Shown: piece by piece, positions 2,524 to 58,500 of the stretch
Layout: each line of letters opens with the position of its first letter
Numbering within the stretch: the stretch's first letter is position 1
Assembly (NCBI GenBank): GCA_964291405.2
Contig: OZ219926.1
Location: forward strand, 2,176,001-2,240,000
DNA length: 64,000 nt
Direction: 5' to 3'
Source: Thermodesulfobacteriota bacterium
GTDB lineage: Bacteria; Desulfobacterota; Binatia; Bin18
Notes under the pieces: generated by a model
Told to the model about the DNA's origin: nothing
Seen by the model: only the letters and a program-made list of their open reading frames with translations
Databases searched by the model: none
Made by a program: the position numbers and the translations under genes

Positions 2524-2577
2524 AAAGAGTAAACGTACCCTTCCATCAGACAAAAAAGCTGGGTACGTTCACTCCTT
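2524..2577 (+). repeat. 54-bp palindromic element, copy 1
   Basis: AAAGAGTAAACGTACCC-ttccatcagacaaaaaagct-GGGTACGTTCACTCCTT. It ends immediately before the fhs ATG at 2578. Confidence 0.85.
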
Positions 2578-4251
2578 ATGAGCCGAGACCAAAACCTTGC
2601 CGTTGCCCAGTCCGTCCGCTTGAAGCCGATTGAAGAAATCGCCGCGCAGCTATCGTTACCGTCAGAATACCTTGAGCCCTACGGCCGCGTGAAGGCGAAA
2701 ATCGCGCTTGAAGCGCTCTCTGGCGCATCCGCTGAGACCCAGGGCAAGCTGATTCTTGTTTCGGCCATTAACCCAACCCCTGCGGGTGAGGGCAAGACCA
2801 CCACGACGATCGGCCTAGGCCAAGCCCTGACCAGTCTGGGGAAAAAGTCAACCGTGGCGGTGCGCGAACCCTCAATGGGGCCGGTCTTTGGGGTGAAAGG
2901 CGGAGGCTGTGGAGGGGGTCACTCTCAAGTCCTGCCCATGGAGGATATCAACCTGCACTTTACCGGCGATATTCACGCCGTCAGCTCCGCGCACAATCTG
3001 CTGTCGGCTATGATGGACGCCGCCATGTTTCACCGAACGGTGGATTTGGATGTCCGTCAGATTCGCTGGCGGCGCGTCATGGACATGAATGACCGCGCGT
3101 TGCGTCAAATCGTGATGGGTCTTGGCGGGCGTCTCATGGGCGTCCCGCGTGAAGAGGGTTTTGATATCACCGCGGCATCGGAAGTCATGGCTATTCTGGC
3201 TCTGACGAATGGACCTGCGGACCTCATTCAGCGTCTGTCACGTATTGTGCTGGGCTATTCATCCCAGGGGGAAGCGGTCACCGCGGACCAAATTCACGCG
3301 TCGGAGGCGATGGCCATTATTCTGAAAGACGCTCTCAAGCCTAACCTGGTTCAGACCGTGGAAGGCGTACCGGCCTTCATCCACGCTGGGCCGTTCGGCA
3401 ATATCGCCCACGGATGTAACAGTATTCTCGCCACGCGACTGGCCCTGGGCTACGCCGATTATGTCGTGACTGAGGCCGGCTTCGGGTTTGATCTGGGTGG
3501 AGAGAAATTCCTCAATATCAAATGCCGCGAGGCCGATCTGTGGCCCGACGCGGTGGTCCTGGTCGCAACGGTCAAGGCGCTCAAAATGCACGGCGGTACG
3601 CCGGTGGCAGATGTGAACACACCCGATCTGTCAACCCTGAAGCAGGGCATGGAAAACCTGGCCAAACACGTCGAGAGTCTGAGCGCGTTTGGCCTCCGGC
3701 CGATTGTGGCGGTGAATCGGTTTGCCACCGATACCGAGGAGGAATTGCAACTGGTTGTAGAGGAAAGCAAAGCCCTGGGCGTAGAGGCAACAGTCATTGA
3801 CGTGTTTGGCCAAGGAGGAGAAGGCGGGCTGGAGCTGGCCGAGGCGGTAGTGAAAGCCTGCGACGGACCGGCTCCGGTACAGCGTTTTCTATATCCGACA
3901 GAAATGCCGATTGAGGACAAGATTCGGACCATTGCCCAAAAAGTCTACGGCGCGACGGATATCACCCTGCTGCCACGCGCGCGCACCGACCTCAAACGGA
4001 TCAACGACCTGGGATATGACCATGTGCCCATTTGCATGGCCAAGACCCAGATGTCCCTGTCCGACGACCCAAAACGCTACGGCCGGCCGCGTGACTTCGT
4101 GCTGAGCGTGCGCGAAATCCGCCTCTCGGCCGGGGCCGGCTTCTGTGTCCCACTCACCGGGGACATGCTAACCATGCCCGGCCTGGGCGCAAAACCTGCC
4201 GCAGCCGGGATGCGGATGGATGAGAGCGGCAAAATTTCGGGTATGTTCTGA
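2578..4251 (+). CDS. fhs: Formate--tetrahydrofolate ligase
   Basis: PTPAGEGKTT, REPSMGPVFGVKGG, INLHFTGD, HAGPFGNIAHG and TEAGFG motifs; 557 aa. Confidence 0.97.
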   Translation: MSRDQNLAVAQSVRLKPIEEIAAQLSLPSEYLEPYGRVKAKIALEALSGASAETQGKLILVSAINPTPAGEGKTTTTIGLGQALTSLGKKSTVAVREPSMGPVFGVKGGGCGGGHSQVLPMEDINLHFTGDIHAVSSAHNLLSAMMDAAMFHRTVDLDVRQIRWRRVMDMNDRALRQIVMGLGGRLMGVPREEGFDITAASEVMAILALTNGPADLIQRLSRIVLGYSSQGEAVTADQIHASEAMAIILKDALKPNLVQTVEGVPAFIHAGPFGNIAHGCNSILATRLALGYADYVVTEAGFGFDLGGEKFLNIKCREADLWPDAVVLVATVKALKMHGGTPVADVNTPDLSTLKQGMENLAKHVESLSAFGLRPIVAVNRFATDTEEELQLVVEESKALGVEATVIDVFGQGGEGGLELAEAVVKACDGPAPVQRFLYPTEMPIEDKIRTIAQKVYGATDITLLPRARTDLKRINDLGYDHVPICMAKTQMSLSDDPKRYGRPRDFVLSVREIRLSAGAGFCVPLTGDMLTMPGLGAKPAAAGMRMDESGKISGMF

Positions 4252-4272
4252 GCCTGACAATACCGCCGATGG

Positions 4273-5190: not shown

Positions 5191-5254
5191 CGCTCCAGGT
5201 CTTTGAGAGCCAGGCGTAGTTTCAGTCGGGTGTTGCTGTCCTCAGTTGCGCGGG

Positions 5255-11052: not shown

Positions 11053-11391
11053 ATGACGAAGACCGAGATGGTGAAAAAACTTGGTGAGACGTGGGGGGAA
11101 GCCTCGAACCGTGCGGCAGCCGACAAGCTGGATTCCTTTGTGGAGTTCATCACAAAGACGGTCAAAAAAGACAAAGAGTTGAAAATTCCCAACCTGGGGA
11201 CCTTTCGGCTCCGTCAGTTGAAGCGCCGCAAGGGACGCAACCCGCAGACCGGGGAGGTGATTACCATTCCGGCTCGGAAAAAGGTTGCCTTCACGCCGGC
11301 AAAAGTGTTTAAGGAATCTATTCTCGGCCCAGCAAAGAAGACGGCAGCGAAGAAGACGGCAGCGAAGAAGGTCGCCCGGAAGAGAAGGTAA
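11053..11391 (+). CDS. hup: HU family DNA-binding protein with Lys/Ala-rich tail
   Basis: MTKTEMV...LGTF...RKGRNPQTGEVITIPARKKVAFTP; KKTAAKKTAAKK tail; GAGG RBS. Confidence 0.95.
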   Translation: MTKTEMVKKLGETWGEASNRAAADKLDSFVEFITKTVKKDKELKIPNLGTFRLRQLKRRKGRNPQTGEVITIPARKKVAFTPAKVFKESILGPAKKTAAKKTAAKKVARKRR

Positions 11392-11446
11392 GCCCGAGAG
11401 TCTTGTATCCGCGGATATTTCCCCTCTTTCCTCTTCCGGGTCCGAC

Positions 11447-11478
11447 AAGGGACGTCTTTGGCGTCCCTTTCTTTTTTT
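11447..11478 (+). terminator. Intrinsic terminator after HU
   Basis: aagggacgtc-tttg-gcgtccctt hairpin followed by TCTTTTTTT. Confidence 0.8.
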
Positions 11479-12120
11479 ATGAGCTACGCAGTCAAAGAAA
11501 TTTTTTATACCCTCCAGGGCGAAGGCGCTCACGCCGGCCGGCCGGCGGTCTTCTGTCGTTTTACCGGATGCAATTTATGGTCTGGGCTGGAGAGGGACCG
11601 AGCTACGGCGGTCTGTCAGTTCTGTGATACCGATTTCGTTGGGACGGATGGCTCCGGGGGGGGACATTTCGCGTCTGCCCGCGACCTGGCTCGGGCCGTC
11701 GCTGCTACCTGGCCGACCCAGCGGGCCCCTCACGGTGTTCGGTTTGTCGTGTGTACAGGCGGCGAACCCTTACTCCAGCTTGATGCCGCGCTTGTTGACG
11801 CCCTGCACACAGAAGGCTTCGAGATTGCGATTGAGACAAATGGAACGCTGCTTCCTCCGCCGGGCATTGATTGGATCTGTGTCAGTCCCAAGGCTGGCTC
11901 GACCCTCACCCTTAGGCATGGCAGTGAACTGAAACTCGTCTTTCCCCAGTCCGGTGCTGAACCAGAGCGCTTTGATCAACTCGATTTTCAGGAGTTTTTC
12001 TTGCAACCAATGGATGGTCCTGAGCGAGAGCGCAATACCCAACTGGCGCTGCAATACTGTCTTGATCACCCGCGGTGGCGGCTCAGTCTGCAAACACATA
12101 AACTGCTCGGGATTCCGTAG
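11479..12120 (+). CDS. queE: 7-carboxy-7-deazaguanine synthase (radical SAM, CX14CX2C type)
   Basis: YAVKEIFYTLQGEG, C-NLWSGLERDRATAV-CQFC, TGGEPLLQ, ETNGT and LSLQTHK. Confidence 0.96.
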   Translation: MSYAVKEIFYTLQGEGAHAGRPAVFCRFTGCNLWSGLERDRATAVCQFCDTDFVGTDGSGGGHFASARDLARAVAATWPTQRAPHGVRFVVCTGGEPLLQLDAALVDALHTEGFEIAIETNGTLLPPPGIDWICVSPKAGSTLTLRHGSELKLVFPQSGAEPERFDQLDFQEFFLQPMDGPERERNTQLALQYCLDHPRWRLSLQTHKLLGIP

Positions 12121-12155
12121 TCCGACCCGTTCATTAGCATGATCGAGAAGACCCT

Positions 12156-12914
12156 GTGAGAGACGACCTCGGCCAACAAGAAAAGCTCCTTCAGCTTGCC
12201 GCACAGCAAGCCGCCCGACAGGGGAAAAGTGTCGCCCGTTATCTCCGAGAACTGCAAACGAAAGTCTCACGCCAAGAACGCGTTTCCGTTCGAGGCGCGG
12301 AACCCCGGCAGCAGGAGCCTCGCGCGAAATATGTGACGCTGACTCGTCGGGAGGTTGAGCGGTTATTTGCCCAGATCACAGACGAGCGCGACCGTGCGCT
12401 GTTTGCCGCCATGTACGCCTTCGGACTGCGTGCCTCTGAGGTGGGCCTCTTACTGCGCGAGCACGTCGATTTTCGTACCCGTCGCATTCATATTCCACGC
12501 CTCAAGGGCGGCGTCGCCGGAGAGAAACCGTTAACCGCAGAGTATCTGCGTCTGCTCCGAGCGTATCTGCAAAACCGGAGGGACGCCCTGCCCTACCTCT
12601 TTCCGTCGCGGAACGCGCGTCCGGTCAGTCGACAGCGTATTGATCGACTCTTCCGCCTGTACGCAGAGCAGGCCAAGCTTCCGCCGTCGAAACGCCACAG
12701 TCATTGTTTACGCCATTCCATTGCCGCCCATCTGCTTGAGGACGGACATGCCCTAGAGGAAGTGCAGGCGCATTTGGGGCATAAATCTATTCACTCAACA
12801 GTCGTCTATACGAAAACCACTGCACCACGCCGCCGCCCGCTCTCCGTGCGTATCCAACCGTCCGGAAGCACGCGAACGGTCATACAGGTAATAAGAAAGT
12901 CGGGACCACGCTAA
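12156..12914 (+). CDS. Tyrosine recombinase, FimB/FimE-like (catalytic domain only)
   Basis: Full catalytic set: R (GLRASE), K (RLKGG), H-x-x-R (HCLRH), H (LGH) and Y (TVVYT). No SAM-like core-binding domain is evident. Confidence 0.88.
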   Translation: MRDDLGQQEKLLQLAAQQAARQGKSVARYLRELQTKVSRQERVSVRGAEPRQQEPRAKYVTLTRREVERLFAQITDERDRALFAAMYAFGLRASEVGLLLREHVDFRTRRIHIPRLKGGVAGEKPLTAEYLRLLRAYLQNRRDALPYLFPSRNARPVSRQRIDRLFRLYAEQAKLPPSKRHSHCLRHSIAAHLLEDGHALEEVQAHLGHKSIHSTVVYTKTTAPRRRPLSVRIQPSGSTRTVIQVIRKSGPR

Positions 12915-16780: not shown

Positions 16781-16834
16781 TAGCGAGTGAGTTGCCTAGC
16801 CTTTTGTGATATTGGCGGCGGGGAGCGGTTCAGT

Positions 16835-38429: not shown

Positions 38430-38485
38430 GCTCTGCTGCTAACGGAAAGAGCACCAGAAATCAATAAACGGGGCCATCCGGCCGA

Positions 38486-38539
38486 AAAGAGGAAACGTGT
38501 CCAGCATCGCATATCTATTGGAAGACACGTTTCCTCTTC
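38486..38539 (-). repeat. 54-bp palindromic element, copy 2
   Basis: AAAGAGGAAACGTGTCC-agcatcgcatatctattgga-AGACACGTTTCCTCTTC, between divergent genes. Confidence 0.9.
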
Positions 38540-38614
38540 GTTCCCTTGTCTGACTGCGAAGAGGTGATAGGCTACGCTCCGTACTGAAATATGGATTGAC
38601 CGGAAAAAGGAGGT

Positions 38615-39565: not shown

Positions 39566-39574
39566 CCTGAATCC

Positions 39575-39600
39575 TAGGGGCGCGACCTGTCGTGCCCCTA
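39575..39600. repeat. REP-like hairpin / bidirectional terminator
   Basis: TAGGGGCGCGA-cctg-TCGTGCCCCTA between convergent genes. It resembles GTAGGGGCG...CGCCCCTAC REPs. Confidence 0.6.
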
Positions 39601-40644: not shown

Positions 40645-40740
40645 GAGAGATTCTGCTCTATCCCGCCCTCTCCGAGAAGAAAAGTCCCTGCACCCCTCCT
40701 GTGACCGCTCTCCTCGGAATCCGTCATCAGCAACTTGGTT

Positions 40741-41715: not shown

Positions 41716-41883
41716 GTTGTGTCCTTTCTGCTGCGTGCCTGACCTGAGGCCCTCAATCTCACCCCCATCATCGTAGGTGACTGGTGGCGAGAGTCAATCT
41801 GACTAGGCCGTATTGTGAATTATGGGTCGATCAGCCACAATCCAACAGGCTGGCTCTCATGGCGACGACTCTGAGGAGGAGAC

Positions 41884-43143: not shown

Positions 43144-43171
43144 GCTGCGCCAGAGTAGGCCGTCCCCGCGC

Positions 43172-43963: not shown

Positions 43964-43977
43964 GGGCTTCTCCTCCT

Positions 43978-45210: not shown

Positions 45211-45293
45211 GGTTCCGGTCGAGTCTGGAGATTTTCACCACCGAGGGCAAGAGGGATGGGCTAGACTGTTCAGTCTGGTTCGCTATGGTTTGG

Positions 45294-45347
45294 AAAGAGT
45301 AAACGTGCCCTCCACTCAGGTATAATTGCTGGGCACGTTTACTCTTT
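45294..45347 (+). repeat. 54-bp palindromic element, copy 3
   Basis: AAAGAGTAAACGTGCCC-tccactcaggtataattgct-GGGCACGTTTACTCTTT; perfect 17-bp inverted repeat. Confidence 0.92.
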
Positions 45348-45365
45348 GTCAAATGAGGAGGGGCT

Positions 45366-46196
45366 ATGACGTATCAGAACCTGATATTCGAGAAGAAGGA
45401 TGCTATCGGCTATCTGACCCTCAACCGGCCACAGAAGCTCAATTCATTCAGCAAGGAACTGATGGCCGAACTGGGCGAGGCGCTTGATGCGATCGAAGCC
45501 GATGACGACATCCGGGTCGTGATTCTGACCGGAGCCGGGCGGGCGTTTTCCGCGGGGTTCAATATCGCGCCGCCGGAGGGCGAGCCCGAACTCTACGACC
45601 GCTCCGCGGATAGCTGGCGGACTGATTTGAAGTACAACATCGAGATTTTTCTCAAGATCTGGCATTCCAGCAAGCCGTATATTGCGGCGATTAACGGCTA
45701 TGCCCTGGCTGGCGCGTGCGAACTCGCCCAGTTATGCGATATTAAAATTGCCTCCGAGCAGGCGGTGCTCGGTGAGCCGGAAATCCGGTTTGGGACCGGC
45801 CCCCCGGTCCTGGTCACGCCGTTCAGCGTCGGGTTTGCCAAGGCAAAGGAACTGCTCCTGACCGGGGAAATGATCTCCGCCCACGAGGCTGAGCGCCTGG
45901 GCATGATCAATCGTGTCGTACCGCACGACCAGCTCATGCGTGAATGCGAGAAGACGGCCCGCAAGCTGGTAAAGATCGCTCAGGTTGGGGTGAAGTTTAA
46001 CAAGGCCGCCATTAACCGGGCGTATGAGAACATGGGCTTTCTGAACAGTATCTACCAGAATCTCGATCTGGTTGTCATGTTTGACACCACCCGGACGCAA
46101 GAGCAGGAAACGTTCAACCAGATCCGGAAGGAAAAAGGCCTGCGCGCCGCGCTCGACTGGCGCGATGCGCTGTTCAAGGAAGACGACAAAGAGTAA
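45366..46196 (+). CDS. Enoyl-CoA hydratase/isomerase
   Basis: LNRPQKLNS, AFSAGFNI, AINGYALAGACE and PEIRFG; GAGGAGG RBS. Confidence 0.94.
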   Translation: MTYQNLIFEKKDAIGYLTLNRPQKLNSFSKELMAELGEALDAIEADDDIRVVILTGAGRAFSAGFNIAPPEGEPELYDRSADSWRTDLKYNIEIFLKIWHSSKPYIAAINGYALAGACELAQLCDIKIASEQAVLGEPEIRFGTGPPVLVTPFSVGFAKAKELLLTGEMISAHEAERLGMINRVVPHDQLMRECEKTARKLVKIAQVGVKFNKAAINRAYENMGFLNSIYQNLDLVVMFDTTRTQEQETFNQIRKEKGLRAALDWRDALFKEDDKE

Positions 46197-46241
46197 ACGT
46201 GTCCAGCATCTCGTGTTTATTGGAAGACACGTTTACTCTTT
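46188..46241 (-). repeat. 54-bp palindromic element, copy 4 (contains the ECH stop codon)
   Basis: AAAGAGTAAACGTGTCC-agcatctcgtgtttattgga-AGACACGTTTACTCTTT. Confidence 0.92.
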
Positions 46242-48455: not shown

Positions 48456-48488
48456 TAGAGAACGCTCTGGGCTTACATCTCTTAGTTC

Positions 48489-48614
48489 TTAGTGCGGGGA
48501 TGGCGGCTGGGCGTGGTGGGTCTTCTGAATTTTTGACAAGCGCCATACAAACCATGCCAGGCCGGTCAGGCCGGTCAGGACGCCAACAGATGCAAGTATC
48601 TCAATGAGAGTCAC
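48489..48614 (-). CDS. Small single-TM protein (41 aa), not in the ORF track
   Basis: MTLIEILASVGVLTGLTGLAWFVWRLSKIQKTHHAQPPSPH; its GTG start overlaps the upstream stop (GTGA) behind GGAG. Confidence 0.5.
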   Translation of the reverse strand: MTLIEILASVGVLTGLTGLAWFVWRLSKIQKTHHAQPPSPH

Positions 48615-48853
48615 GATTTCTCCTCCTCAATCGAATCAACCAGACGATAAATCACCAGCATTTGTGTCAGAATGGTTCTAACCAAAAGATAGGAAAGGGG
48701 TAAACCCAAGAGTCCGGCTACTACTTGAATCTCGGCCGAGGCATAGGAGATCAAAATCCCAACTGACCCGCCAAGTATAGCAAAGAAGAATACCATGAGA
48801 AATTTGAGTAATTCTGTCTCCCATCGGATTTGTTCTGCTCGTTTATCCGCCAT
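48611..48853 (-). CDS. Small two-TM hypothetical protein
   Basis: Two hydrophobic segments; purine-rich RBS. Confidence 0.65.
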   Translation of the reverse strand: MADKRAEQIRWETELLKFLMVFFFAILGGSVGILISYASAEIQVVAGLLGLPLSYLLVRTILTQMLVIYRLVDSIEEEKS

Positions 48854-48919
48854 CCCTATTCCCCTTCTCGCCCGAAAGTGCTCTTACCGCCCCAAACTAA
48901 CGACATCATTGCGCAAGCG

Positions 48920-51430
48920 TCACCATGCTGCCGGAGATGGTAACACGGTCTCAACCCGGTAACTCTTCCCATCGCTCCGCACCGTTACCGCTCCTACCTG
49001 GTCCGTTCTGAGCAAGGTCGTACCCTGCTGCTCATAGCGGCCCACCACTTCTGGCGCTGGAAAGCGAAAGCGGTTTTGATAGCCGAGCGAAGCGATCGCT
49101 ATCTCAGGTGACACGGCTTCAAGAAAGGGCCGGGTGCTTGAGCTGCGGCTGCCGTGATGGGGAACCTTGAGAATCTCGCTCTGAAGAGGTGCCGGTGTTC
49201 CGAGCAGAATGCCCTCCCCCACAGCCTCAACATCACCGGAAAACAGCATATCCACCTCCCCGTGACTGAGACGGAGCACAAGGGAGGCGTCGTTTGTGTC
49301 CAGTCCGGTCTGGCCGCAGGGCGGATGCAGGATGTGGACCTGCACCCCACCAATTTCCCGGTCCGGCGTATCGCGGCACAAAGTGTGGGCCTGGATACCG
49401 TTCTCTTGCAACGTCGCCATCAGCCGCTTGAAACGCGAGCTTTTTGACTCCTGACCATTAAACCAGAAGGCTGTGGCGCCAAAGTGCTCGGCCAAAAACT
49501 CCAGCCCGCCGTAGTGGTCAAGGTTGGGATGGCTGAGGACCAGCGTGTCTATACGTCCTATTTTCTGCTGCCACAAGAAAGGCGCAACAATAGCCCGACC
49601 CGAATCAAACGTCTGACTCGTGAATCCGCCTGCGTCAATGACCATGACGTGAGAGCCGGGAAACTCGACCACGGCCGCATCACCCTGTCCGACATCGAGA
49701 AAAGAGACCTGCAGCTCAGTCTGAAAATAGCGTTGAGTCAGCCAGTACAGACCGTCACAGAGCATCAGGCCGAACAGGCAGGAGAAAAAGACTCGTCGCA
49801 GCCCGGATGGTTGGAAGCGTGAGTAGAACAAGAGGGAAACACAGAAGGTATAAAACAGCAGAAGTTCAAAAGACGTGAGGGTTACAAAGTGAATGGCGGT
49901 GAAGGGCAAAGCTGCGATGGCTTCGACCATCCCCACGCCGAGCGAGACCACGGCTCCGGCACACCACCCGACCAGGGTCGCAGCACTCGTGTGAATAAAC
50001 ACCAGCACTGCTGTAGCCAGACCCAACACCACGGCGGCACTCCCCAGGAAAGGGACCAACAGCAGATTGGCCACAAATCCAACCAGCGGGACAGTATGAA
50101 AATGGGTCGCGACAAGCGGGAGCGTACCGACCGTCGCACTCAGAGTAACAAGACAATAGAGACCGGCCCAGCGCTGGAATCGTTGTCGCCATTGAGAGGG
50201 GTCGACATCTCGCGCTTTGTCACGATTATCACGCCAGATTTGGAAACGGCGCAGGCCAAGAAAAATAGCCAAGACGGCCACAAAAGAAAGCTGAAAAGAG
50301 ATATCAAGGACGGCTCCCGGCCAGAGCAGCGATACGATCAGGGCAGCAAGGGCGAGGCTGCGGAAGACCTCCTCTTTTTGGTCCAGCAGCAGCGCAGTGA
50401 GAAAGACAGTCACCATAATGACCGCCCGCAAGGTCGAAACACTACCGCCTGCAAGTCCGGCGTACAGTAGCACGACCGGCAGCGTAAAGAGCGCGGCCAG
50501 TTTGGGTACCGACCACATCAACAGCGCATACTGACTCCGCGCCAGGAGCCACCACCAGGCTCCATACGCCAGCGCTGCAACCAGGCCGATGTGAAGCCCG
50601 GAAATGGCAAGGACGTGGGCAACACCCACCCGCGTGAAGCTGTCGCGCAACTCCGGCTTGAGGCGGCTTTTATCGCCGATGATCAACGCGCGGAGAATGG
50701 CCGCGGCTGTGGTTGAAAGCTGCGCGTCAAAGAATGCACCGACTGTCCGACGAACGTGTTCAAGCCGATGACGCAACCCAGTACCGGTCCTGTTGTCCGG
50801 CTCGATCTTTTCGATTTTTCGGTCATCCCACACAAAAGCAGTGAGATAGAGACCCCGCCGGGCCAGATAGCCTGCATAATCAAAACTGCCCGGCGTATGA
50901 AAATTGCGCGGGGTGCGGAGTTTGAGCGGAAGCTTCATCACATCGCCGTATTGCCAGCGACCTTGGAGATGACGAACGGTGACAAGCACCTTGCCCGTTA
51001 CCGGCCGTGACTGCCCGTCTTGCCAGATGCGTCGCGCCTCAAGATATAACCGGCCGCGGGCCGGACCCCGTTCCGGCTCCTGGAACAGCCAACCTTCGAG
51101 TGTAACTTTTTGTGGTAAAGTAAGCTGCCGGAGGTGGTGCACGGGAAAATCGGGAGTGTAGACGCGCTGGAGAGCGAGATTACCGACCAGGAAAGCGCCG
51201 CTCAGCAGACTGACCAAAACGGCTAGACGGAACCCCCCTATGATCCAACTGGCCACACTGAGAATCAGCAGTCCGCCCAGCCATAGAGGAGAAGCCGCCT
51301 GCCAGCCCCAGGCCACACCGGCTTGGCCCAAGAGATACACCAGAGCGAGATGGATGAGGATCGACCGCTCAAGCCAGCCCGTCAGACGAAGACATGTGAG
51401 AGACGCTTGCCAGGACAGCTGACGAGACAT
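48920..51430 (-). CDS. comEC: DNA uptake channel ComEC/Rec2
   Basis: HVLAISGLH, SFQLSF, FLDVGQGDA, SHPNLDHYGG and LKVPHHGS. Confidence 0.95.
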   Translation of the reverse strand: MSRQLSWQASLTCLRLTGWLERSILIHLALVYLLGQAGVAWGWQAASPLWLGGLLILSVASWIIGGFRLAVLVSLLSGAFLVGNLALQRVYTPDFPVHHLRQLTLPQKVTLEGWLFQEPERGPARGRLYLEARRIWQDGQSRPVTGKVLVTVRHLQGRWQYGDVMKLPLKLRTPRNFHTPGSFDYAGYLARRGLYLTAFVWDDRKIEKIEPDNRTGTGLRHRLEHVRRTVGAFFDAQLSTTAAAILRALIIGDKSRLKPELRDSFTRVGVAHVLAISGLHIGLVAALAYGAWWWLLARSQYALLMWSVPKLAALFTLPVVLLYAGLAGGSVSTLRAVIMVTVFLTALLLDQKEEVFRSLALAALIVSLLWPGAVLDISFQLSFVAVLAIFLGLRRFQIWRDNRDKARDVDPSQWRQRFQRWAGLYCLVTLSATVGTLPLVATHFHTVPLVGFVANLLLVPFLGSAAVVLGLATAVLVFIHTSAATLVGWCAGAVVSLGVGMVEAIAALPFTAIHFVTLTSFELLLFYTFCVSLLFYSRFQPSGLRRVFFSCLFGLMLCDGLYWLTQRYFQTELQVSFLDVGQGDAAVVEFPGSHVMVIDAGGFTSQTFDSGRAIVAPFLWQQKIGRIDTLVLSHPNLDHYGGLEFLAEHFGATAFWFNGQESKSSRFKRLMATLQENGIQAHTLCRDTPDREIGGVQVHILHPPCGQTGLDTNDASLVLRLSHGEVDMLFSGDVEAVGEGILLGTPAPLQSEILKVPHHGSRSSSTRPFLEAVSPEIAIASLGYQNRFRFPAPEVVGRYEQQGTTLLRTDQVGAVTVRSDGKSYRVETVLPSPAAW

Positions 51431-51456
51431 GGTGTGCGAGCGATGGGCCGACTCGG

Positions 51457-53376
51457 TTAGCGTGAAGCGGGGTGTGCCCGTAAGTGCTGGTGTATTTTTT
51501 CCGCCAGGATCGGGGTAATCCCCGCGACCTGGCCCAACGCTTCGGGTGCGGCGGCGCGCACGCGCTTAAGACTGCCAAAATGCCGTAAGAGCGCTTTGCG
51601 TTTGGCCGGGCCAACGCCGCTAATCGCCTCAAGCGGCGAACTGAGACGCTCTTTGGCACGTAGGTTCCGGTGGTAGGTAATGGCAAAGCGGTGGGCCTCA
51701 TCCCTGATACGTTGCAGAAGGAAGAGCGCCGTAGCGTTGGGCTTGAGAATGACCGGATTCTTGCGACCGGGCAGAAAGACGCGCTCGGAGGAATGAGCGA
51801 CTTCTTCGGCAAACGGGTCCCGCTCGGTCCGCATCTTGGCCAGACCAATGACATCCACCTCAGTAATTCCCAACTCTCGCAGCACAGTGACTGCGACGCC
51901 GAGTTGGCCTTTGCCGCCATCCACCATGAGAAGGTCCGGCAGGTCATGTTCCGCCAAGGCGCGCTGATAGCGGCGGGTGAGGACTTCATACATCATGCCG
52001 AAATCATCCGCTCCCTCGACGGTTTTGATGCGAAACCGGCGGTAGCGGTTCCTATCCGGCTCGCACTCGTCAAAGACAACCATGGAACCAACGGAGAGAT
52101 TGCCCTGGGTATTCGAGATATCGAAACACTCAATCCGTTTTGGCGCGTTTTGCAGATGCAGCGCACGGCGGAGGTTCCCCAGGGTTTTCTCCTTATGTTC
52201 TTCTCCCCGCCGCTTTTCGACAAAGCTGTGACGCGCGTTTTCCTGAGCCATTTCCACCAGTCGCAGTTTGGCTCCGCGCTGCGGACAGAGCAGGCTGATC
52301 TTTTTCCCTTTCCGTTCCGAGAGGAGTTCCGCCCGGATGTCGGCATCGTCAAGTGCAACGGGGACAAGAATCTCGTCGGGGATAAATCGGCCGCTCTGGT
52401 AGAATTGGCTCAGGAATTCAGCCACGACCTCCACGTCGGGAAACTCATTATCGGTAAAGCTATAGGCCAGATTGCCAACCAGTTTCCCGCCGCGTACAAA
52501 CAGGACCTGTCCTTCGATCAGCCCGCCTTCGCGGTACAGGCCGAACACGTCCTGGTCGTTCCCCAGGGGGGTGGCGACCTGCTGCTTTTCCGCGGTTTTT
52601 GTCATGGCCTGGATTTGATCCCGTAGCCGGGCGGCTTCTTCAAAACGCAACGCGTCGGCGGCCTGGTTCATCTGCCGGGTGAGGCGATCTATCAGTTGGG
52701 TGCTTTTGCCTTCGAGCAGCAGCAGGGCATTTTTCAGTTGGTGCTGATAGTCTTCGGGATCAACCGGCAGGGTACAAGGACCGAGGCAGCGCTTGATCTG
52801 GTATTCCAGACACGGCCTGGTGCGGTTGCGAAAGACAGTGTCGGTACAGGTTCGCAGGGGAAAGACTCTGCGAATGATTTCCAAGGTCTCCTGGACTGCC
52901 GTGCTGGAGTGAAACGGTCCCAGATATTTACTGCCGTCCTTCGCAATCTGGCGGGTCAGGAGGAGACGGGGCCACTGGTCGTGCTGGGTGACCTTCACGT
53001 GCCAATAGGAGGTATTGTCCTTGAGCCGGATATTATACCGAGGCCGGAATTGCTTGATCAGGGTGTCTTCGAGCAGCAGGGCTTCTTTTTCGGTTTGGGT
53101 AACAATAACCTCAACATCGGTCAGTTGGGCGAGGAGAAAACGGATTTGTGCACGACCGTCCCCGCCACGGGCGTATTGTCTGACCCTGGCGCGCAGATTG
53201 TTCGCTTTCCCGACGTAGATGACGGTGCCGGTGTGATCCGTGAACTTATAGACGCCGGGACTGGTTGGCAGGGTTGTCAGCTTGGCTTCGAGTTCGGCGT
53301 TACGGGAGAAAGAGGAAACGTGTCCGGCTTTTTTGTCTGGTTGGAGGACAGGTTTCCTCTTTACGGCACTCGCCAC
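51457..53376 (-). CDS. uvrC: Excinuclease ABC subunit C
   Basis: PGVY...IYVGKA (GIY-YIG), RIECFDIS, VDGGKGQ, RDEAHRFA and HhH tail. Probable start is GTG 53376 after GAGGA. Confidence 0.96.
   Translation of the reverse strand: MASAVKRKPVLQPDKKAGHVSSFSRNAELEAKLTTLPTSPGVYKFTDHTGTVIYVGKANNLRARVRQYARGGDGRAQIRFLLAQLTDVEVIVTQTEKEALLLEDTLIKQFRPRYNIRLKDNTSYWHVKVTQHDQWPRLLLTRQIAKDGSKYLGPFHSSTAVQETLEIIRRVFPLRTCTDTVFRNRTRPCLEYQIKRCLGPCTLPVDPEDYQHQLKNALLLLEGKSTQLIDRLTRQMNQAADALRFEEAARLRDQIQAMTKTAEKQQVATPLGNDQDVFGLYREGGLIEGQVLFVRGGKLVGNLAYSFTDNEFPDVEVVAEFLSQFYQSGRFIPDEILVPVALDDADIRAELLSERKGKKISLLCPQRGAKLRLVEMAQENARHSFVEKRRGEEHKEKTLGNLRRALHLQNAPKRIECFDISNTQGNLSVGSMVVFDECEPDRNRYRRFRIKTVEGADDFGMMYEVLTRRYQRALAEHDLPDLLMVDGGKGQLGVAVTVLRELGITEVDVIGLAKMRTERDPFAEEVAHSSERVFLPGRKNPVILKPNATALFLLQRIRDEAHRFAITYHRNLRAKERLSSPLEAISGVGPAKRKALLRHFGSLKRVRAAAPEALGQVAGITPILAEKIHQHLRAHPASR
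53309..53362 (-). repeat. 54-bp palindromic element, copy 5 (in frame at the uvrC N-terminus)
   Basis: AAAGAGGAAACGTGTCC-ggcttttttgtctggttgga-GGACAGGTTTCCTCTTT. Confidence 0.9.
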
Positions 53377-53386
53377 ACAAATCCTC

Positions 53387-53417
53387 AAAAAAGAAGGGCG
53401 ACCCCGAAGGCCGCCCT
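53387..53417 (-). terminator. Intrinsic terminator after comEA
   Basis: Minus strand AGGGCGGCC-TTCG-GGGTCGCCCT followed by TCTTTTTT. Confidence 0.8.
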
Positions 53418-53464
53418 GACAGCAGTGTTCAGAGGCACTGCTATTCTGTTGCAGGTTCCATCGG

Positions 53465-53806
53465 TTATTCGCTGGACCCCACGGTGATTTGCTCTTTCAG
53501 TTTCTCAAGCGTCTTCTCGCCAACGCCCTTGACGTTTTTCAGATCATCTACAGTCGCAAACGGACCATTGGCTTCGCGATGGGCGATAATGGCCGCGGCT
53601 TTTGTTTCACCGATACCGGGCAGGGTCTGCAAGGCAGCCGCGTCCGCCGTGTTGATATCAATCGGCCCGGCAGCCTCAGGCATCTGCTCCTCAGCGGCTT
53701 CAGCCGTCTCCTCAGCCGCCTCGTGATGATCCGCCCAGACGGGCGTCCCCATAAAACAGCCGACCGCAAAAACTCCAAGCGCCAACCAGAGAAATCTCTG
53801 TTTCAT
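53465..53806 (-). CDS. comEA: ComEA-like helix-hairpin-helix DNA-binding protein
   Basis: Signal peptide; IDINTA, LPGIG and VKGVGEK; GGAGG RBS before ATG 53806. Confidence 0.92.
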   Translation of the reverse strand: MKQRFLWLALGVFAVGCFMGTPVWADHHEAAEETAEAAEEQMPEAAGPIDINTADAAALQTLPGIGETKAAAIIAHREANGPFATVDDLKNVKGVGEKTLEKLKEQITVGSSE

Positions 53807-53978
53807 GCTTCCTCCGTACAAGAATAGGATAAGAAAACACACTAGGTCTGCAATCAATATCTGTCAATACGTCATCAAGGAGGACCCCGGTCGCGTTGAC
53901 CGAGCAGGGGAAACCCGTTAGATGAAGGGCTGATATACTACAGCTACCGATCTGCTTACAGAAGGAGAACCGTTCAGC

Positions 53979-55349
53979 ATGGCGACGATGATCACCGATG
54001 ACTGTATCAACTGCGGAGCGTGTGAGCCCGAATGTCCCAATACCGCCATCTATCAGGGAGGCGTGGAGTGGGACTTTAACGGCGCCACGAATCCGGCTAT
54101 CGATGACGACATCTTCTATATCGTGCCGGATAAATGTACGGAGTGTGTGGGCTTTTTCGATGAGGAAGCGTGTGCGGCCGTGTGTCCGGTCGACTGCTGC
54201 CTGCCCAACCCGGACATTGTCGAGACCGAAGAGGTGTTACTGGCGCGGGCCAAGGAGTTACATCCCGAGCAGACGTTTGGGGAGGACTTCCCCTCTCGCT
54301 TCAAAGGGGAAGGAGGAGAATCCACTCCGGCTGAAGCCGAGGCCCCGGCGGCGAATGGCGCAGCGGCACCAGCGGCCGCAGCGGCACCAGCCGCAGCTCC
54401 TGCCGCGGTGGCACCCGTCGCCGTAGCGCCAGCAGTGACGGCACCGACACCCAAGCCGGTTGCGCCCAAAAAGGTTGTCGAGGAAAAGGTCTTTGAAGGT
54501 GAACTGGCCGGTACGTACGCCCAGGCCCTGGCCCGCGTCCAGCAGGCGCAAAACCATTCAATTCTGGGGACGCTCCTTGCCTCGGCTCAGCCCATCCTTG
54601 GCGCGCTGCCGCTCTCAACTAAGCGCGCCCTGGAGCAAGCTATTGGGGATACGCGCTATTTTCATGTCGGGACGGCAACCAGCCTGAATATCCTTTTCAA
54701 TATGGTCCTGTATCCGATTATTCTCCTGGCCGTTTATAGCGCTGTTTTAGGAGGAGAACTCTTCAGTCAGGCGGCGAATAAATTTATCTTTCTGGGCGTA
54801 CTCATTGCCTCGGTCGAAACCTTAATCCGCCTGCGCGAGTCTTTCTTTCAGGGCGTTCCAACCGAAGAAACTCCGCTGCGTGGGACCTTCTATGGCCTCC
54901 CCCTTGCTCCGGCGATGGCCCCTTTTCTCGGTATCTCCGGCGGACGGACGCCTGATAAGGGCGACCAGCCGATTGAGGGCTATTATACACCGGAATTTGA
55001 TGAAAAGACCGAACGTTCGCGCCGTTACGGCGAACGATACACGGTCGAAGAACAGGGCAATGCCTATATCCTGCGCATGGAATTCCCGCGTCGGGTCCCG
55101 GTTTCCGCTGCTAAGCGGGAAATGGGGATTGGCGATGAAATGCCTGACTACGAGTATACGCTCTCTCTGAAGGACGGCAATTTTCTTGTCCGCGGCAGTG
55201 TCGATGACCCTGATATCCGTAAACTTGCCGCGGTATCGTCCGCGTTTCCCCCTGACTTTAATAAACGCATTGATGTGAGGGGAACCATATCGAGTTTCAA
55301 GCATCGCTATAGCGATAAGACGCTCGAAGTTGTGCTGTTCAAGCGCTAG
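53979..55349 (+). CDS. YfhL-like 2x[4Fe-4S] ferredoxin fused to a TM region and a C-terminal beta-rich domain
   Basis: CINCGACEPECP and CTECVG...CAAVCP; Ala/Pro linker; two hydrophobic helices; AAGGAG RBS. Confidence 0.85.
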   Translation: MATMITDDCINCGACEPECPNTAIYQGGVEWDFNGATNPAIDDDIFYIVPDKCTECVGFFDEEACAAVCPVDCCLPNPDIVETEEVLLARAKELHPEQTFGEDFPSRFKGEGGESTPAEAEAPAANGAAAPAAAAAPAAAPAAVAPVAVAPAVTAPTPKPVAPKKVVEEKVFEGELAGTYAQALARVQQAQNHSILGTLLASAQPILGALPLSTKRALEQAIGDTRYFHVGTATSLNILFNMVLYPIILLAVYSAVLGGELFSQAANKFIFLGVLIASVETLIRLRESFFQGVPTEETPLRGTFYGLPLAPAMAPFLGISGGRTPDKGDQPIEGYYTPEFDEKTERSRRYGERYTVEEQGNAYILRMEFPRRVPVSAAKREMGIGDEMPDYEYTLSLKDGNFLVRGSVDDPDIRKLAAVSSAFPPDFNKRIDVRGTISSFKHRYSDKTLEVVLFKR

Positions 55350-55533
55350 GGCTCTTCCAGAGCGATACGAGCAGGAGCGCGCAGAGGAGCCTCTTCTCTC
55401 AGAGATAGGTGGAGAGGTGTTGCTCCGCCGTACCCGTCACTACCCGCTTCCCAGACAGCGCCCCTGCTTATGGGGAAGGACGCCTCGTCGGACAATGCTT
55501 GCAAAAACCCGACTCGCCCCATAAGCAGTAAGT

Positions 55534-58500
55534 ATGTCTCAAAAGCGAGTATTTCTCTCCGACTCGCTTGCCGTCCTGCAAGAGGCGCTCATTGCCGCTG
55601 TCCATACGCTGAAGGCGGCCGATCCACTGACCTCACTCACGATTATTGTTCCCAGTGATATCATCGGATCACAGCTCAGCACCGCAATTGCCAGGGCGGG
55701 TGACGGGCATATCGGCCTGCGGTTTACGACACTGATCGACTATGCTGCACGCCTGACCGAAGCGCGACTGAGACGGGAGGAGAAACATCGCGTCTCAGCC
55801 GCGCTGGTTCCGCTTCTCGTAAAACATCTCTTGCTGGAACAAGCCCAGACCGGAAAGAGTAAACGTGTCCTCCAACAACATGTAGATGCTGGACATGTTT
55901 ACTCTTTATTTCGGGAACTCGCCCGGCAGCCGCGGTTTCCCCAGTTCTTGAGCGAGACGCTGTCAGACCTCAAGCAGGCGGGGGTCCAGCCCCACCATCT
56001 GCACGTATTGTATACCCGGATTCCTTCGCGGGACGTATTATATCGAGAGAAAATACGTCATTTGCTGGACCTCTACACGCGATATGAAGCATGTTTGGAC
56101 GAACAGCGGCTCGTTGATGACGCCAGTTTGTTCACCATCCAGGCCCCAACGGCAATGAGTAACGGGCCGCTGCTTGTGTACAGCGGCCTTGAGTATACCG
56201 CCCAACAGCAGCATTTTTTGGAAACGCTTTTCGCGCAGAGGGATACTCTGGTCTTTCTTCCCTGGCGGCCCGGTTCAGCCTACGAAGCCGTGACCCCCAC
56301 ATTGAGCTGGCTCAGCGGGCTCGGCTTTCAGTCATCTTCGTTAGCCCGTCCACAGGTCTCATCCTGTTCACTCTCTCAGGTCCAGACTCGGCTTTTTGAA
56401 CGCACCGGGGAGCCGCCCCAGCGGCCGGTCTCAACACTCCCGGATACCTCTCTTCACATCATTTCCGCCCCAGATCAAACCCAGGAGGCGCGTGAAATTG
56501 CGCGCACGATCTTTTCACTGGTTCGGGAGCAGGACTATATCTTTGACGAGATTGGCGTGCTCCTTGTCGAGCCAAAAACATATGGTCCGCTGCTGCTTGA
56601 GACGCTCTCCCGCCTCGGGATTCCGTGTACCTTTGTTGGGGAGCAGCCCTTGCTGACCACGCGACGGGGAAAAGCCGTGCAGGCGCTATGCCACCTCTTG
56701 TTAGAAGACTGCTCACGGCAGCGTCTGTTCGCCTTTCTCAGGCTGGCTCGCCCCCCGTTTCAAGACCTGATCGGGGAAACTGTTTCAGAGGCGCATATCG
56801 CCCAGTGGGAAGCCCTGTGTCTGGAGGCCGGGATAGGACGCGGAGGCCAGGAGTGGCGCGTTCGACTCGCCGCCCTGGAAGCTCGCTACCAAAACGTACC
56901 AGAGGGACGCACCGAACAGCTCGCGCCCGCCCTCCGTTTGCTTGTCAGGTTTATGACCCGTTTTCTGGCGGATGTGAAAACGGGTCAGGACCAACAGACC
57001 TGGGAAGGCTGGCTGGCCCACTTCCTGCGTATGTATAAAAAGTATGGAGAATATGGAGATTATGTGTCCGGCGGAGTCCCGTGGAGTGACGAGGAACCGG
57101 ATCAAGAAGGTGCAGGTGAGCAGGATCTGAATATTACGGAGACTCTCCGGAGTCTCTCTCCATTCTTGGCTGAAACAACTCGCCCTGAGGAATGGGTTGA
57201 GACTGTTCTGACCTGTCTTTCCTGGGGAAAGGTTCGACCCCGAAAAACGCACACGACCGGCGTCTTTCTTGGCGATATGACCCAGGTGGCCGGTCTCCGC
57301 TTTCGGGCGGTCATCATGCCGGGCCTTGCACAGGAATCCGGGGTTCGCCTCCCCTCTCAGGACCCTATTTTGTCCGATGCCGAGCGCCAGCATCTTGCCG
57401 AAGTGCTGACCATGGACGTGCCTGTCCGCCGCCAGGCGGTTGAACGCCAACAGTTCCTTTTCCTGCTGGCGACCCAGAGTGCGCAGGAGGTGTTATGTCT
57501 GAGCTATCCACGCACTGTCCAGGGAGTAGCCCGCCCTCCTGCTACGCTCCTCTTACAGACGGTCAGTGTGCTGTGTGGCCGTCAGGCCACGCTGGCAGAC
57601 CTGCAACACCGGAGCCGGTGGGTCTCGGCGGCTGAAGGATATGCGCAGAGCACCCGGCATGCGGTGGACGCGTTGGAGTTCCACCTGGCCTATGCGTTTA
57701 CCCATGCGCATCACGTTAAACACAATGCCCCGGCGCATGCGGTCCGGCCTGGTCTACAGACGATGCCGTTCTTTGCTCCTGCCGCGCGGGCGATGGTAGA
57801 CCGTTGGGAGCATCCACACCTCACGGCCTTTGACGGCTGCATGCAAGCGGAGAGCGTCAAGAACACGCTACGTCAGTACCTCTTCCCGCAGGGCTTGTGT
57901 TTGTCCGCGAGTAGCCTGGAAACCTATGCACGCTGTCCGTTTCGGTATTTTCTGGAGACCGTGCTCGCGCTCAAGCCGTGGGAAGAGCCGGAACAGATTC
58001 TTACCCTCCTGCCGCGCGACCGTGGAGTGTTGGTACATGCCATCCTGTACGAATTTTTCTCTCGTCTCCAACAGACGGACCAATTGCCCCTGTCCGCGCA
58101 ACGGAGAGATGAAGAGCAGCAACTGCTCACCCGGATAGCAGAGGAGCATTTTGCGCTATTTGCGCAGACGCGGCCGGTCGGACTGCCCCTGCTCTGGGAG
58201 CTTGAGCGTGAACGCCTGCTGCGGCGTTTGCACACCTTTCTCCAGCGCGAGCGCCGGGCAACGCACGGTTTTTGTCCAGCGGCATTTGAGGTATTTTTTG
58301 GCATCGGGATAAAGAGCTCAGAGTCGGAGGATAGGGAATCGGAGCGAACCCCTATCCCCCAATTCCTCACCCCCAATATTCCCGTTCCCTTTCGCCTTGA
58401 TACGGGGGAAGAGGTCCAGCTTCGAGGCCGGATTGACCGGATTGATGTTTCGACGGAACACATTGACCTTGTACAACCCAGGCAGGCACGCATTCTTGAC

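Follow-up and report, generated by a model that had tools for sequence, protein, structure and literature searches.

Small palindromic repeats are common among bacteria, and to our knowledge the mode of movement is not known for most families of them. The REPINs of Pseudomonas fluorescens SBW25 are doublets of REP sequences that form hairpins in single-stranded DNA and are associated with RAYT transposases; in the published description a pair of conserved arms in inverted orientation encloses a spacer that is less conserved, compensatory changes are common and most copies are extragenic, with 71 bp between two conserved 16-mers in the GI REPIN, and the abstract reports a random distribution in extragenic space (PMC3116915). 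Rickettsia palindromic elements are described as about 150 bp long and fall into ten families in obligate intracellular Alphaproteobacteria (PMC10969869). Hairpin repeats of another kind, the NTS/SRM repeats of about 30 bp with an orienting non-palindromic flank, are bound by the Ssn GIY-YIG single-strand nucleases; as described, they flank the gene of a small dedicated protein that recognizes them as single-stranded DNA, and they are common in symbionts (PMC11893778). Chloroplast hairpin loops of 4-50 bp are reported to flip in place, their orientation being homoplastic (Kelchner & Wendel 1996, cited in PMC12371153).

The palindromes described here, which are dispersed over a Candidatus Binatia chromosome, probably represent a non-autonomous mobile element, about 54 bp long and confined to one lineage, of the type of the REPINs and the Rickettsia palindromic elements, with fold-back handling. 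By the published description they share with REPINs the conserved inverted arms, the less conserved spacer, the single-stranded DNA hairpin and the frequent compensatory changes, as well as a copy number of at least 100 and vertical inheritance within a lineage accompanied by gains and losses; by approximate gene calls, they may also share the location mostly between genes. They differ from REPINs in measuring about 54 bp in all, against the spacing given for the GI REPIN, in having no cognate RAYT, and in being clustered at the origin with about one-seventh of copies in called frames, whereas the abstract has REPINs placed at random in extragenic space. Like the Rickettsia elements as described, they are palindromic repeats without a known transposase that lie in frame in unrelated housekeeping genes and add a conserved peptide; unlike them they are 54 bp (18 codons) long, form one family and, by the same gene calls, are mostly intergenic, a distinction drawn from descriptions of the Rickettsia elements rather than from their sequences. 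With MITEs they have in common that they are short, gene-less, present in many copies, bounded by terminal inverted repeats and variably present between relatives, but they have no target-site duplication and, in this genome, no parent insertion sequence with their ends. The Ssn repeats, compared here by the description of SRM, are likewise dispersed, hairpin-forming and non-randomly distributed, although the small GIY-YIG frame of the Binatia genome is far from any copy. Finally, the chloroplast small inversions resemble the Binatia palindromes in that a short loop between inverted repeats flips in place during evolution; those described are single-copy, non-mobile and in plastids, in contrast to a mobile family in a bacterial chromosome.

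Structure of the element

Six copies lie in the window, by which we mean the whole 64-kb stretch of DNA that was analysed (Table 1), and direct checking bore out the positions given in the initial annotation and the division of each 54-bp copy into 17+20+17. The element is a 17-bp inverted-repeat stem with a loop of about 20 nt, it has no coding capacity within its 54 bp, and at least two loop subtypes make up one family. When up to 3 mismatches were allowed, the arm was matched 12 times in the window, twice per copy, where 2.0 were expected and 0 of 100 shuffles reached 12. All six copies fold into hairpins as single-stranded DNA, at -9.5 to -17.8 kcal/mol (z -4.1 to -8.4; equalled by 0 of 200 shuffles). 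The length, which had been taken to be invariant, is so in the six window copies but not elsewhere: chromosome-wide, near-full copies measure 51-57 bp, and only 87 of 152 are of 54 bp (35 are of 55 bp, eight of 56, seven of 53, seven of 57, five of 51 and three of 52). Searches of Rfam gave no matches, either for the entire window at gathering thresholds or for positions 45200-46300 at E values up to 1.

Table 1. Copies of the palindrome in the 64-kb window, their gene context and the state of the orthologous site in other genomes
Copy	Position	Strand	Core	Gene context	Orthologous site
1	2524..2577	+	forward, AATCAGACAAAAAAGC subtype	Divergent intergenic region; abuts the ATG of the formate-tetrahydrofolate ligase gene (2578-4251), ending exactly there	
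2	38486..38539	-	reverse	Between divergent genes: Mg-chelatase-like ATPase, 36909-38429 (-), and luciferase-like monooxygenase, 38621-39565 (+)	Clean empty in G001, G018, G042; in G041 the core is flipped in place relative to G004
3	45294..45347	+	forward	Between the DUF790 gene (-) and the enoyl-CoA hydratase gene (+)	Degenerate relic in G019; empty in G011, G004, G041; core inverted in G018
4	46188..46241	-	reverse	Inserted into the enoyl-CoA hydratase gene (45366-46196), precisely at the junction of its last sense codon with its TGA stop	Empty in G019, G017
5	53309..53362	-	reverse	Extreme 5' end of uvrC (51457-53376, - strand)	
6	55854..55907	+	forward	In frame inside the addB-like nuclease/helicase gene (55534-58878); translated as 18 extra residues (KSKRVLQQHVDAGHVYSL)	Clean empty in G019, G021, G017, G014, G020, G024; in G013 by one set of alignments only

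The covariation of the arms proposed from the six copies holds genome-wide. Across 151 distinct copies 94% of arm cells are paired. Compensated double changes number 96, where 1000 shuffles give 25 on average and never more than 39; this test overstates the signal because the copies are related by descent. Compensated changes are also seen in place at the addB-like orthologous site, where the arms read TAAAC/GTTTA, TCAAC/GTTGA or GAAAC/GTTTC.

With home-made gene calls, by which all context counts are approximate, 131 of 153 copies lie outside called frames and 22 (about one in seven) inside, and copies within the opening 25 codons of a frame may in fact be upstream of the true start. The copies outside frames persist in short intergenic spacers, often abutting start or stop codons; at copy 4 the TAA of the arm now serves as the stop of the enoyl-CoA hydratase gene and the insertion adds Lys-Glu. 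Copy 5 represents either codons 5-23 of the called uvrC frame or DNA just upstream of its true start. Intragenic copies are whole-codon, stop-free inserts, 15 of the 22 share one reading phase, and the peptide that they encode is mostly KSKRVLQ..AGHVYS. Such 18-codon inserts are found in alaS, mnmG, mnmE and mfd, and in uvrA-like, addB-like and miaB-like genes. Pfam domains run on both sides of the copy in MnmG, AlaS, the MiaB-like protein and a FAD monooxygenase; the copy sits between domains in Mfd and in the AddB-like protein, and in MnmE it follows the GTPase domain, inside the span of the helical-domain match.

Lineage range and chromosomal distribution

A profile scan of the genome with nhmmer found 153 loci, all on contig C3, and we put the total for the chromosome at 152-153 copies. 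Of 24 further genomes sampled within the genus, 17 contain the exact arm; none of 16 from outside it does, and the reversed-pattern control gave 0. When one mismatch was allowed in a search of 301 genomes, matches were obtained in 19 of 25 genomes of genus g1 and in three of genus g19 (18-30 per strand), and the remainder were single matches, like the 9 single matches of the control. The family is present in these two sister genera and was not found in a search of 253 genomes from 19 other families of the class. Two close relatives, G019 and G013, keep few copies, which are degenerate at orthologous sites. Between the two genera the arms are near-identical and the loops drift.

The copies are strongly clustered around dnaA, with 78 of 152 within 500 kb where 20.6% would be expected, and the non-coding space there is not larger. 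In two genomes of the sister genus a hand count of the listed places gave a modest enrichment in the same direction around the origin. This clustering is not predicted by a simple selfish-element model, and it is a reason to consider a site that serves the host and was spread by selection. Such a site might be one in DNA, structural or bound by a protein and linked to the origin, or a hairpin in mRNA with a stabilizing or insulating effect on transcripts. The conservation of the arms across genera could reflect a host function, and the restoration of pairing after one-sided changes and the position of 94 of the 131 copies outside called frames between co-directional genes agree with one. We nevertheless regard this explanation as unlikely, since sister species differ at about half of the positions compared, translated inserts lie inside essential genes, G019 and G013 do well with their few, decayed copies, and core orientation relative to transcription is only mildly biased among tandem and intragenic copies (70 same, 46 opposite). 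Nor do the copies resemble intrinsic terminators (a GC-rich stem followed by a T run), a function that we rejected: a 20-kb region that holds five copies contains 23 terminator-like sites, against 19.5 +/- 5.2 in shuffles, and the single one inside any copy is at 46212-46231.

Gain and loss of copies

The comparison of occupied and empty orthologous sites revealed empty alleles that differ from the filled ones by the element alone. The site of copy 6 in the addB-like gene is filled in 11 genomes and clean empty in more distant ones, the difference being exactly 54 bp, and a second in-frame copy about 100 codons downstream is found in only three of the 20 genomes aligned there. Private copies are found in G000, in G001 and in G006, each at a site that lacks the element in one or both of the other two genomes, a pattern that indicates movement of the element after speciation. 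Copy 3, which has left a relic in G019, is an old copy. Direct repeats of 2-6 bp in the flanks are at chance level, so that the flank statistics and the empty sites together confirm the earlier remark that no target-site duplication is visible. There is a weak target preference, GC-N3-(insertion)-N3-GC, and this GC-N6-GC target is weakly palindromic and cut at its centre.

Copies have also been lost. In five genomes 66-78 bp are missing at the addB-like site, flanking codons included, by secondary deletion, and the second addB-like site may bear a 3-bp footprint in G002. Loss therefore contributes to the pattern of presence and absence, because some absences are secondary deletions and not empty targets. 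Such deletions, together with the failure to find an active enzyme and the near absence of insertion sequences from the genome, would suit a dead family, in which a single ancient burst was followed by deletion alone with no movement since the genus radiated. We think this very improbable. Deletions of a palindrome are expected to be imprecise, yet in 23 clean filled/empty comparisons among G000, G006 and G001 over about 200 kb, 16 differ by the exact element with no extra base and seven by the element with a 1-bp ambiguity; the private copies, the empty addB-like site of the more distant genomes and the restriction of the second addB-like copy to three genomes also speak against it. As read from these alignments, then, copies of a mobile element are both gained and lost between species. 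The initial annotation had suggested a non-autonomous mobile hairpin moved by an enzyme encoded elsewhere, and its mobility and non-autonomy fit these data, although the enzymes that it named have gained no support.

Inversion of the loop

The asymmetric core had been thought to give each copy a direction. Three forward and three reverse cores are indeed present in the window, but a copy does not keep its direction reliably: a relative carries the core specific to that locus in inverted form at five orthologous sites (38486 and 45294 in the window, and 2304093, 2343070 and 2469335 on C3). A fixed direction per copy is therefore wrong, because the core flips in place, and the orientation of the loop is an unreliable record of the direction of insertion.

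We suggest that an enzyme recognizes the conserved sequence of the arms and acts on the element when it is a folded single strand or a cruciform; such recognition would be why the arms stay near-identical across two genera while the loops drift. On fold-back pairing the two arms may recombine or template each other, which would both flip the loop in place and restore complementarity after a change in one arm, and covariation and orientation would then be two products of one process.

Candidate mobilizing enzymes

Genome searches and co-occurrence across relatives tied no transposase or recombinase to the element, and in this genome long-range pairs of arms enclose no gene. The sole RAYT (Y1 HUH) gene, at C3:982103, is recognized by NF047646 (91.7 bits, cut-off 80), and its existence, the agreement of the palindromes with the published architecture of REPINs (PMC3116915), and insertion without target duplication, which suits HUH enzymes, could point to a true REPIN family moved by a RAYT as in Pseudomonas and enterobacteria. 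Furthermore, the genomes with few and degenerate copies, G019 and G013, have no PF01797 match. However, the gene is split into two reading frames, the hairpin repeat on either side of it is a different, GC-rich one (of the TGCGGGCTKCCAGCCCGCA type), and the nearest 54-bp copies are about 15 and 18 kb off. Moreover, PF01797 was not found in 10 element-rich genomes (G041, G042, G043, G022, G010, G006, G015, G011, G002 and G004) and was found in the element-free G008, G014, G024, G020 and G016. We therefore reject this RAYT as the mover; the HUH/RAYT-like enzyme first proposed is not supported, and we consider a RAYT-driven family quite unlikely. An IS200/IS605-derived palindromic element is also rejected, the only PF01797 match being the broken RAYT and PF07282 (TnpB) having no match in the genome.

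The other proposed enzyme, a tyrosine recombinase, fares no better. The genome has two Xer-like genes and one other, a conserved host gene, which is present in element-free species and absent from all eight sister-genus genomes examined, though the sister genus carries the element; with no co-occurrence, this third recombinase is rejected as the mover. It scores 65.5 bits against the integron-integrase model, whose cut-off is 265, and this, the lack of co-occurrence and the dispersal of the copies in both orientations led us to reject integron attC sites also. The genome holds almost no insertion sequences. The single one, a DDE_3, IS630-like element in 2 copies, has ends of the CTAGAGC..GTGTAGC type, unrelated to the arms, and a MITE of its own, and in this genome its transposase is rejected. 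Of three GIY-YIG matches (uvrC, a 636-aa frame and a 152-aa frame at C3:4191387), the small one is about 28 kb from the nearest copy. Searches of the genome for enzyme families that insert without duplicating their target (Y1, TnpB, IS110 and serine recombinase) yielded no intact member.

Because no intact enzyme was found among those searched, yet there are gains after speciation, a GC-N6-GC target and a dnaA-centred distribution, we tentatively raise the possibility that the mover is something not yet recognized as a transposase. It might be an enzyme of a new family that recognizes the folded arms, or the replication or repair machinery of the host, working on the hairpin where it is extruded at forks close to the origin.

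Significance of the family

The Binatia palindromes constitute a new family within a known class of selfish DNA, whose closest kinds are the REPINs and the Rickettsia palindromic elements. The family is unusually tractable by comparison: the sister species, at about 80-93% DNA identity in the region of the window, range from genomes rich in the element, through some with a few decayed copies, to others that lack it, and synteny is good, so that one can see directly whether a site is empty, filled, flipped or deleted. If the mover is an unrecognized enzyme, this range of sister species is a ready comparative screen for its gene. The family further illustrates that a REPIN-like population can exist beside a RAYT serving another repeat, and that core genes, alaS, mnmG, mnmE and mfd among them, can accommodate a hairpin of 18 codons. 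For the annotation of Binatia, and of sponge- and coral-associated metagenomes, it accounts for unusual start and stop codons and for inserts of 18 residues in conserved proteins.

Structure and copy number of the element

Six palindromes of 54 bp, each with 17-bp arms around a 20-bp core, lie in the window exactly where the initial annotation had placed them. A mismatch-tolerant arm search (up to three mismatches), used instead of a strict gapped pattern, gave 12 matches in the window, which are exactly the 12 arms of these copies; shuffled windows gave a mean of 2.0 matches, and 12 was reached in 0 of 100 shuffles. The strict pattern with perfect consensus arms has no match in the window, because no copy there has both arms exactly at that consensus. 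In single-stranded form, each of the six copies folds as DNA into the hairpin expected of it (-9.5 to -17.8 kcal/mol, z -4.1 to -8.4), and complementarity of the flanks outside the element is depleted rather than extended, so that the palindrome stops at 54 bp. According to the family profile, the core is forward in the copies starting at 2524, 45294 and 55854 and reverse in those at 38486, 46188 and 53309, the three-to-three division reported previously.

The source genome (G000) is assembled in 4.95 Mb on three contigs, and yields 149 copies with a paired-arm regular expression and 153 loci with a profile search, all of them on the large contig, C3, on which the window occupies positions 2176001-2240000. 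The length had been described as invariant, and this does not hold across the family: 87 of 152 near-full copies are 54 bp long and the others are 51-57 bp, with insertions and deletions in the core, for which at least two subtypes recur among the copies listed by the regular expression. The compensatory nature of the arm changes is borne out in 151 distinct copies, in which 94% of arm positions are paired and 96 compensated double changes are present (mean 25, maximum 39, in 1000 column shuffles), a T:A/G:C alternative at arm position 7 supplying 39 of the 96; since the copies share descent, this test alone is no proof of constraint. Assembled DNA contigs from sequencing runs accumulate over the element, consistent with its presence in many copies.

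A perfect palindrome of 22 bp at C3:2812971-2812992 retains just the outer halves of the arms, without core or inner arm portions, and is apparently a deletion derivative of an element copy. Two identical copies 101 bp apart (C3:2091886-2092040) are the product of one copy and its flank being duplicated locally in tandem, not of two insertions. At C3:1018206-1018230 a truncated copy, comprising the left arm and the beginning of the core, lies directly against part of the GC-rich repeat family that also flanks the RAYT gene (below), and either one element has inserted into the other or a deletion has joined both.

Occupied and empty orthologous sites

Comparison of occupied and empty orthologous sites, as proposed in the initial annotation, revealed clean empty alleles in relatives. 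For the addB-like gene that carries the copy at 55854, orthologues were recovered from 25 of the 27 other genomes of the genus. Alignment at the protein and DNA levels shows the 54 bp to be present in 11 genomes, and the site is empty with intact flanks (CCGG followed directly by NTTTCAGG) in G019, G021, G017, G013 (on one set of alignments only), G014, G020 and G024; five genomes have lost the copy along with 12-24 flanking bases. Downstream by about 100 codons, G004, G041 and G010 have a second in-frame copy that 17 others lack, and three extra bases at this second site in G002 are possibly the footprint of a lost copy. The copy at 46188 falls precisely at the junction of the final sense codon and the TGA in an enoyl-CoA hydratase gene, and the empty site in G019 and G017 reads GACGAC directly followed by TGA. 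For the copy at 38486 there is a clean empty site in G001, G018 and G042.

We also compared G006 and G001 over 200 kb apiece, in the stretch syntenic with the region of G000 where copies are densest. Those G000 copies whose flanks could be placed were filled at 8, empty at 10 and unclear at 4 sites in G006, and filled at 10, empty at 8 and unclear at 7 in G001; conversely, 10 of the 20 copies in G001 and 7 of the 20 in G006 correspond to an empty site in G000. In 23 comparisons with flanks aligned base by base, the element alone accounts for the difference in 16, and a single ambiguous base is added to it in 7. Flank direct repeats of 2-6 bp are at chance level, in agreement with the earlier statement that no target-site duplication is visible. 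The sole target signal, a weak one, is G at -5 and C at -4, mirrored at +4 and +5, and is also seen in several empty sites.

Runs X3 and X5, labelled sponge and coral-reef metagenome, contain 54 and 17 contigs, respectively, that match window positions 38001-58000 at at least 99%, including alleles without the copies at 38486 (joint 38469-38539) and 55854 (joint 55842-55921); judged by these joints, other samples appear to hold one empty and one deleted allele. Contigs from RNA libraries are short, none demonstrably bridging a copy.

Inversion of the core and compensatory change of the arms in place

The core had been said to give each copy a direction. At five orthologous sites (Table), however, the same copy, known by its locus-specific core, is inverted in one relative with the arms unmoved, and core direction is therefore no record of insertion direction. 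The arms also change in place, the addB-like site showing the compensated forms TAAAC/GTTTA, TCAAC/GTTGA and GAAAC/GTTTC together with half-changed intermediates. At the same site the G007 copy has the other core subtype and matches the G004 copy of the second site at 53 of its 54 bases, which may reflect gene conversion or site re-use. Pairing of arm with arm, through recombination or template switching, would both flip the core and restore complementarity; loop inversion between short inverted repeats is known in chloroplast DNA (PMC12371153). Regional counts relative to dnaA give a ratio of plus to minus cores of about 2:1 on the right replichore and about even on the left; since this pattern is not mirrored between the replichores and the core flips, orientation is uninformative as a test of replication-strand bias.

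Gene context and in-frame copies

A home-made gene caller (4539 genes, 88% coding) places 94 of the 153 copies between co-directional genes, 27 between divergent and 10 between convergent genes, and 22 inside reading frames. Neighbouring stop codons lie at or within the element edge in 45 of 114 cases, and 20 of these 45 are a TAA inside the element arm; the copy at 2524 ends exactly at the ATG of a formate-tetrahydrofolate ligase gene. The intragenic copies are read in one phase, as KSKRVLQ..AGHVYS, in 15 cases, in a second phase in 5 and in the third in 2. Their host proteins are ordinary and intact by Pfam, with the copies within or between domains (Table). Six copies placed within the first 25 codons of a frame may in reality precede the true start. 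One of these six, at C3 2425432, splits an ATG; it is absent in G006 and present in G001, and thus the 18-residue extension called there is at least a real insertion.

The long UvrA-like frame (C3:1688170-1693884) encodes 1904 residues with two UvrA domain sets, about twice the usual length. A type I polyketide synthase gene in the window (20780-31012, minus strand; 3410 residues, KS-AT-DH-MT-ER-KR-ACP-KS) lies between 1.5-kb direct repeats (15296-16805 and 31768-33277) that are 88% identical and each contain a 447-residue frame.

Locations of in-frame copies, inverted cores and the IS630-like element
Feature	Location	Genomes compared	Basis
In-frame copy	MnmG, residue 127		Pfam
In-frame copy	MnmE, residue 358		Pfam
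In-frame copy	AlaS, residue 272		Pfam
In-frame copies	MiaB-like enzyme, residues 81 and 148		Pfam
In-frame copy	Mfd, residue 446		Pfam
In-frame copy	Long UvrA-like protein, residue 250		Pfam
In-frame copies	Histidine kinase; FAD monooxygenase; AddB-like protein		Pfam
Core flip	Window 38486	G004 vs G041	One mismatch, core vs its reverse complement
Core flip	Window 45294	G018 vs eight others	Locus-specific core
Core flip	C3 2304093	G000 vs G006	Locus-specific core
Core flip	C3 2343070	G000 vs G006	Locus-specific core
Core flip	C3 2469335	G000 vs G001	Locus-specific core
IS630-like element copies	C3:1699488-1700511 and C3:4345077-4346100		

Distribution around the origin and among relatives

The dnaA gene is at C3:2459882, in the GC-skew trough. 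Within 500 kb of it lie 78 of 152 copies (20.6% expected), and within 100 kb 25 of 152 (4.1% expected); non-coding space near dnaA is no larger than elsewhere. Another 12 copies form a smaller group at 38-160 kb on C3, close to the GC-skew maximum. Two genomes of the sister genus show an enrichment of about 1.5-fold within 1 Mb of dnaA among the arm matches listed. Clustering at the origin may come about through local hopping, replication-coupled insertion or a host role. The first 29.5 kb of C3 (1-29551) repeat its last 35 kb (4860337-4895696) at 92-99.6% identity, probably as an overlap left in the circular assembly or as strain variation, with a true chromosome nearer 4.86 Mb.

Carriers of the exact arm in public records are almost all Candidatus Binatia MAGs. 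A draw of relatives had it in 17 of 24 other species of the genus and 0 of 16 genomes of other genera, the reversed control pattern giving no match in the same draw. When one mismatch is allowed in a scan of 301 genomes from the class, 19 of the 25 that belong to the genus are positive, and three of the sister genus have 18-30 arm matches per strand, with a different last base of the arm; all remaining matches are single, like the 9 single control matches. Arm matches per genome number about 200-270 where the element is abundant and fall to about 15 in G019 and G013, both close relatives with decayed copies. G000, G001, G004-G007, G010, G011, G015, G018, G022, G023 and G041-G043 are element-rich, as are G191, G207 and G218 in the sister genus, and G003, G008, G009, G012, G016, G020 and G024 are free of it. 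A class-wide superfamily of 54-bp hairpins was rejected, no recurrent hairpin being found in 200 kb around dnaA in G038 and G033, members of two other Binatia families.

Search for a mobilizing enzyme

The movers suggested initially were a HUH/RAYT-like enzyme and a tyrosine recombinase, neither of which is supported. PF01797 has one match in G000, a RAYT by NCBIfam (NF047646), and this gene is split into two frames and flanked by a different repeat; moreover, within the genus 10 element-rich genomes lack the domain and 5 element-free ones have it. A GC-rich hairpin repeat (TGCGGGCTKCCAGCCCGCA type) recurs several times on both flanks of the split gene (C3:980603-983833, stretch L118), and gene and repeat together look like a second, classical REP/RAYT system, apparently decayed. 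Three tyrosine recombinase genes (PF00589) are present, none linked to the element. Two are Xer-sized, and the third (window 12156-12914; 252 aa, XerA-like, single-copy) is conserved in syntenic position, having been detected in 24 of 27 genomes of the genus, element-free ones included, and in none of 8 from the sister genus. The XerA-like gene lies downstream of an IHF/HU-like gene at a distance of about 0.8 kb, the interval being occupied by queE (window 11053-12914).

PF01548, PF07282 and PF00239 have no match in G000, and thus no IS110, TnpB or serine recombinase was detected. None of the three GIY-YIG genes (PF01541) is adjacent to the element; the small frame among them, tested because of the Ssn/NTS precedent (PMC11893778), is about 28 kb from any copy. 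Dispersed repeats of at least 250 bp form only two-copy families in G000, one of them an IS630-like (DDE_3) element of 1024 bp that, in two identical copies (Table), is the sole multi-copy insertion sequence. Its ends (CTAGAGC..GTGTAGC) match not our element, of which it can be rejected as parent, but inverted repeats of a third kind held within the split RAYT gene (L118:1286-1468), which suggests that a MITE derived from it disrupted that gene. A gene flanked by the element's own arms, as envisaged initially, was sought in G000 and no convincing long-range arm pair emerged. The two small contigs carry no element copy; they hold BREX-like defence genes, HEAT-repeat genes and one rve fragment, C1 (38.7 kb; stretches L233 and L234) having PglZ, a DNA methylase and DUF6079 with a run of HEAT-repeat genes. 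As no candidate enzyme is tied to the element, its mover was not found in G000.

Relationship to known repeats

Rfam gave no match over the whole window at gathering thresholds, or in 1.1 kb around two copies at E values up to 1. Neither plasmid nor phage collections held a look-alike, BLAST with one copy giving a single partial, chance-level match (E 0.3) in the former and none in the latter. An attC array, a terminator and an Rfam family were each ruled out as its identity; it had not been recognised as a described attC site or IS end in the initial annotation. A limited search of Binatia and Binatota literature, at the level of titles and abstract openings, found no description of it.

Judged against the published accounts, the element is closest to REPINs in architecture and population behaviour (PMC3116915) and to the Rickettsia palindromic elements in its in-frame copies (PMC10969869). 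It fails the tests for a REPIN that involve a RAYT, and those for a MITE that involve target duplication and a parent IS. We conclude that it is a new family of a known kind of repeat, of which three features are worth following: the lack of a cognate enzyme among those found, the flipping of the loop, and the clustering of copies around the origin.
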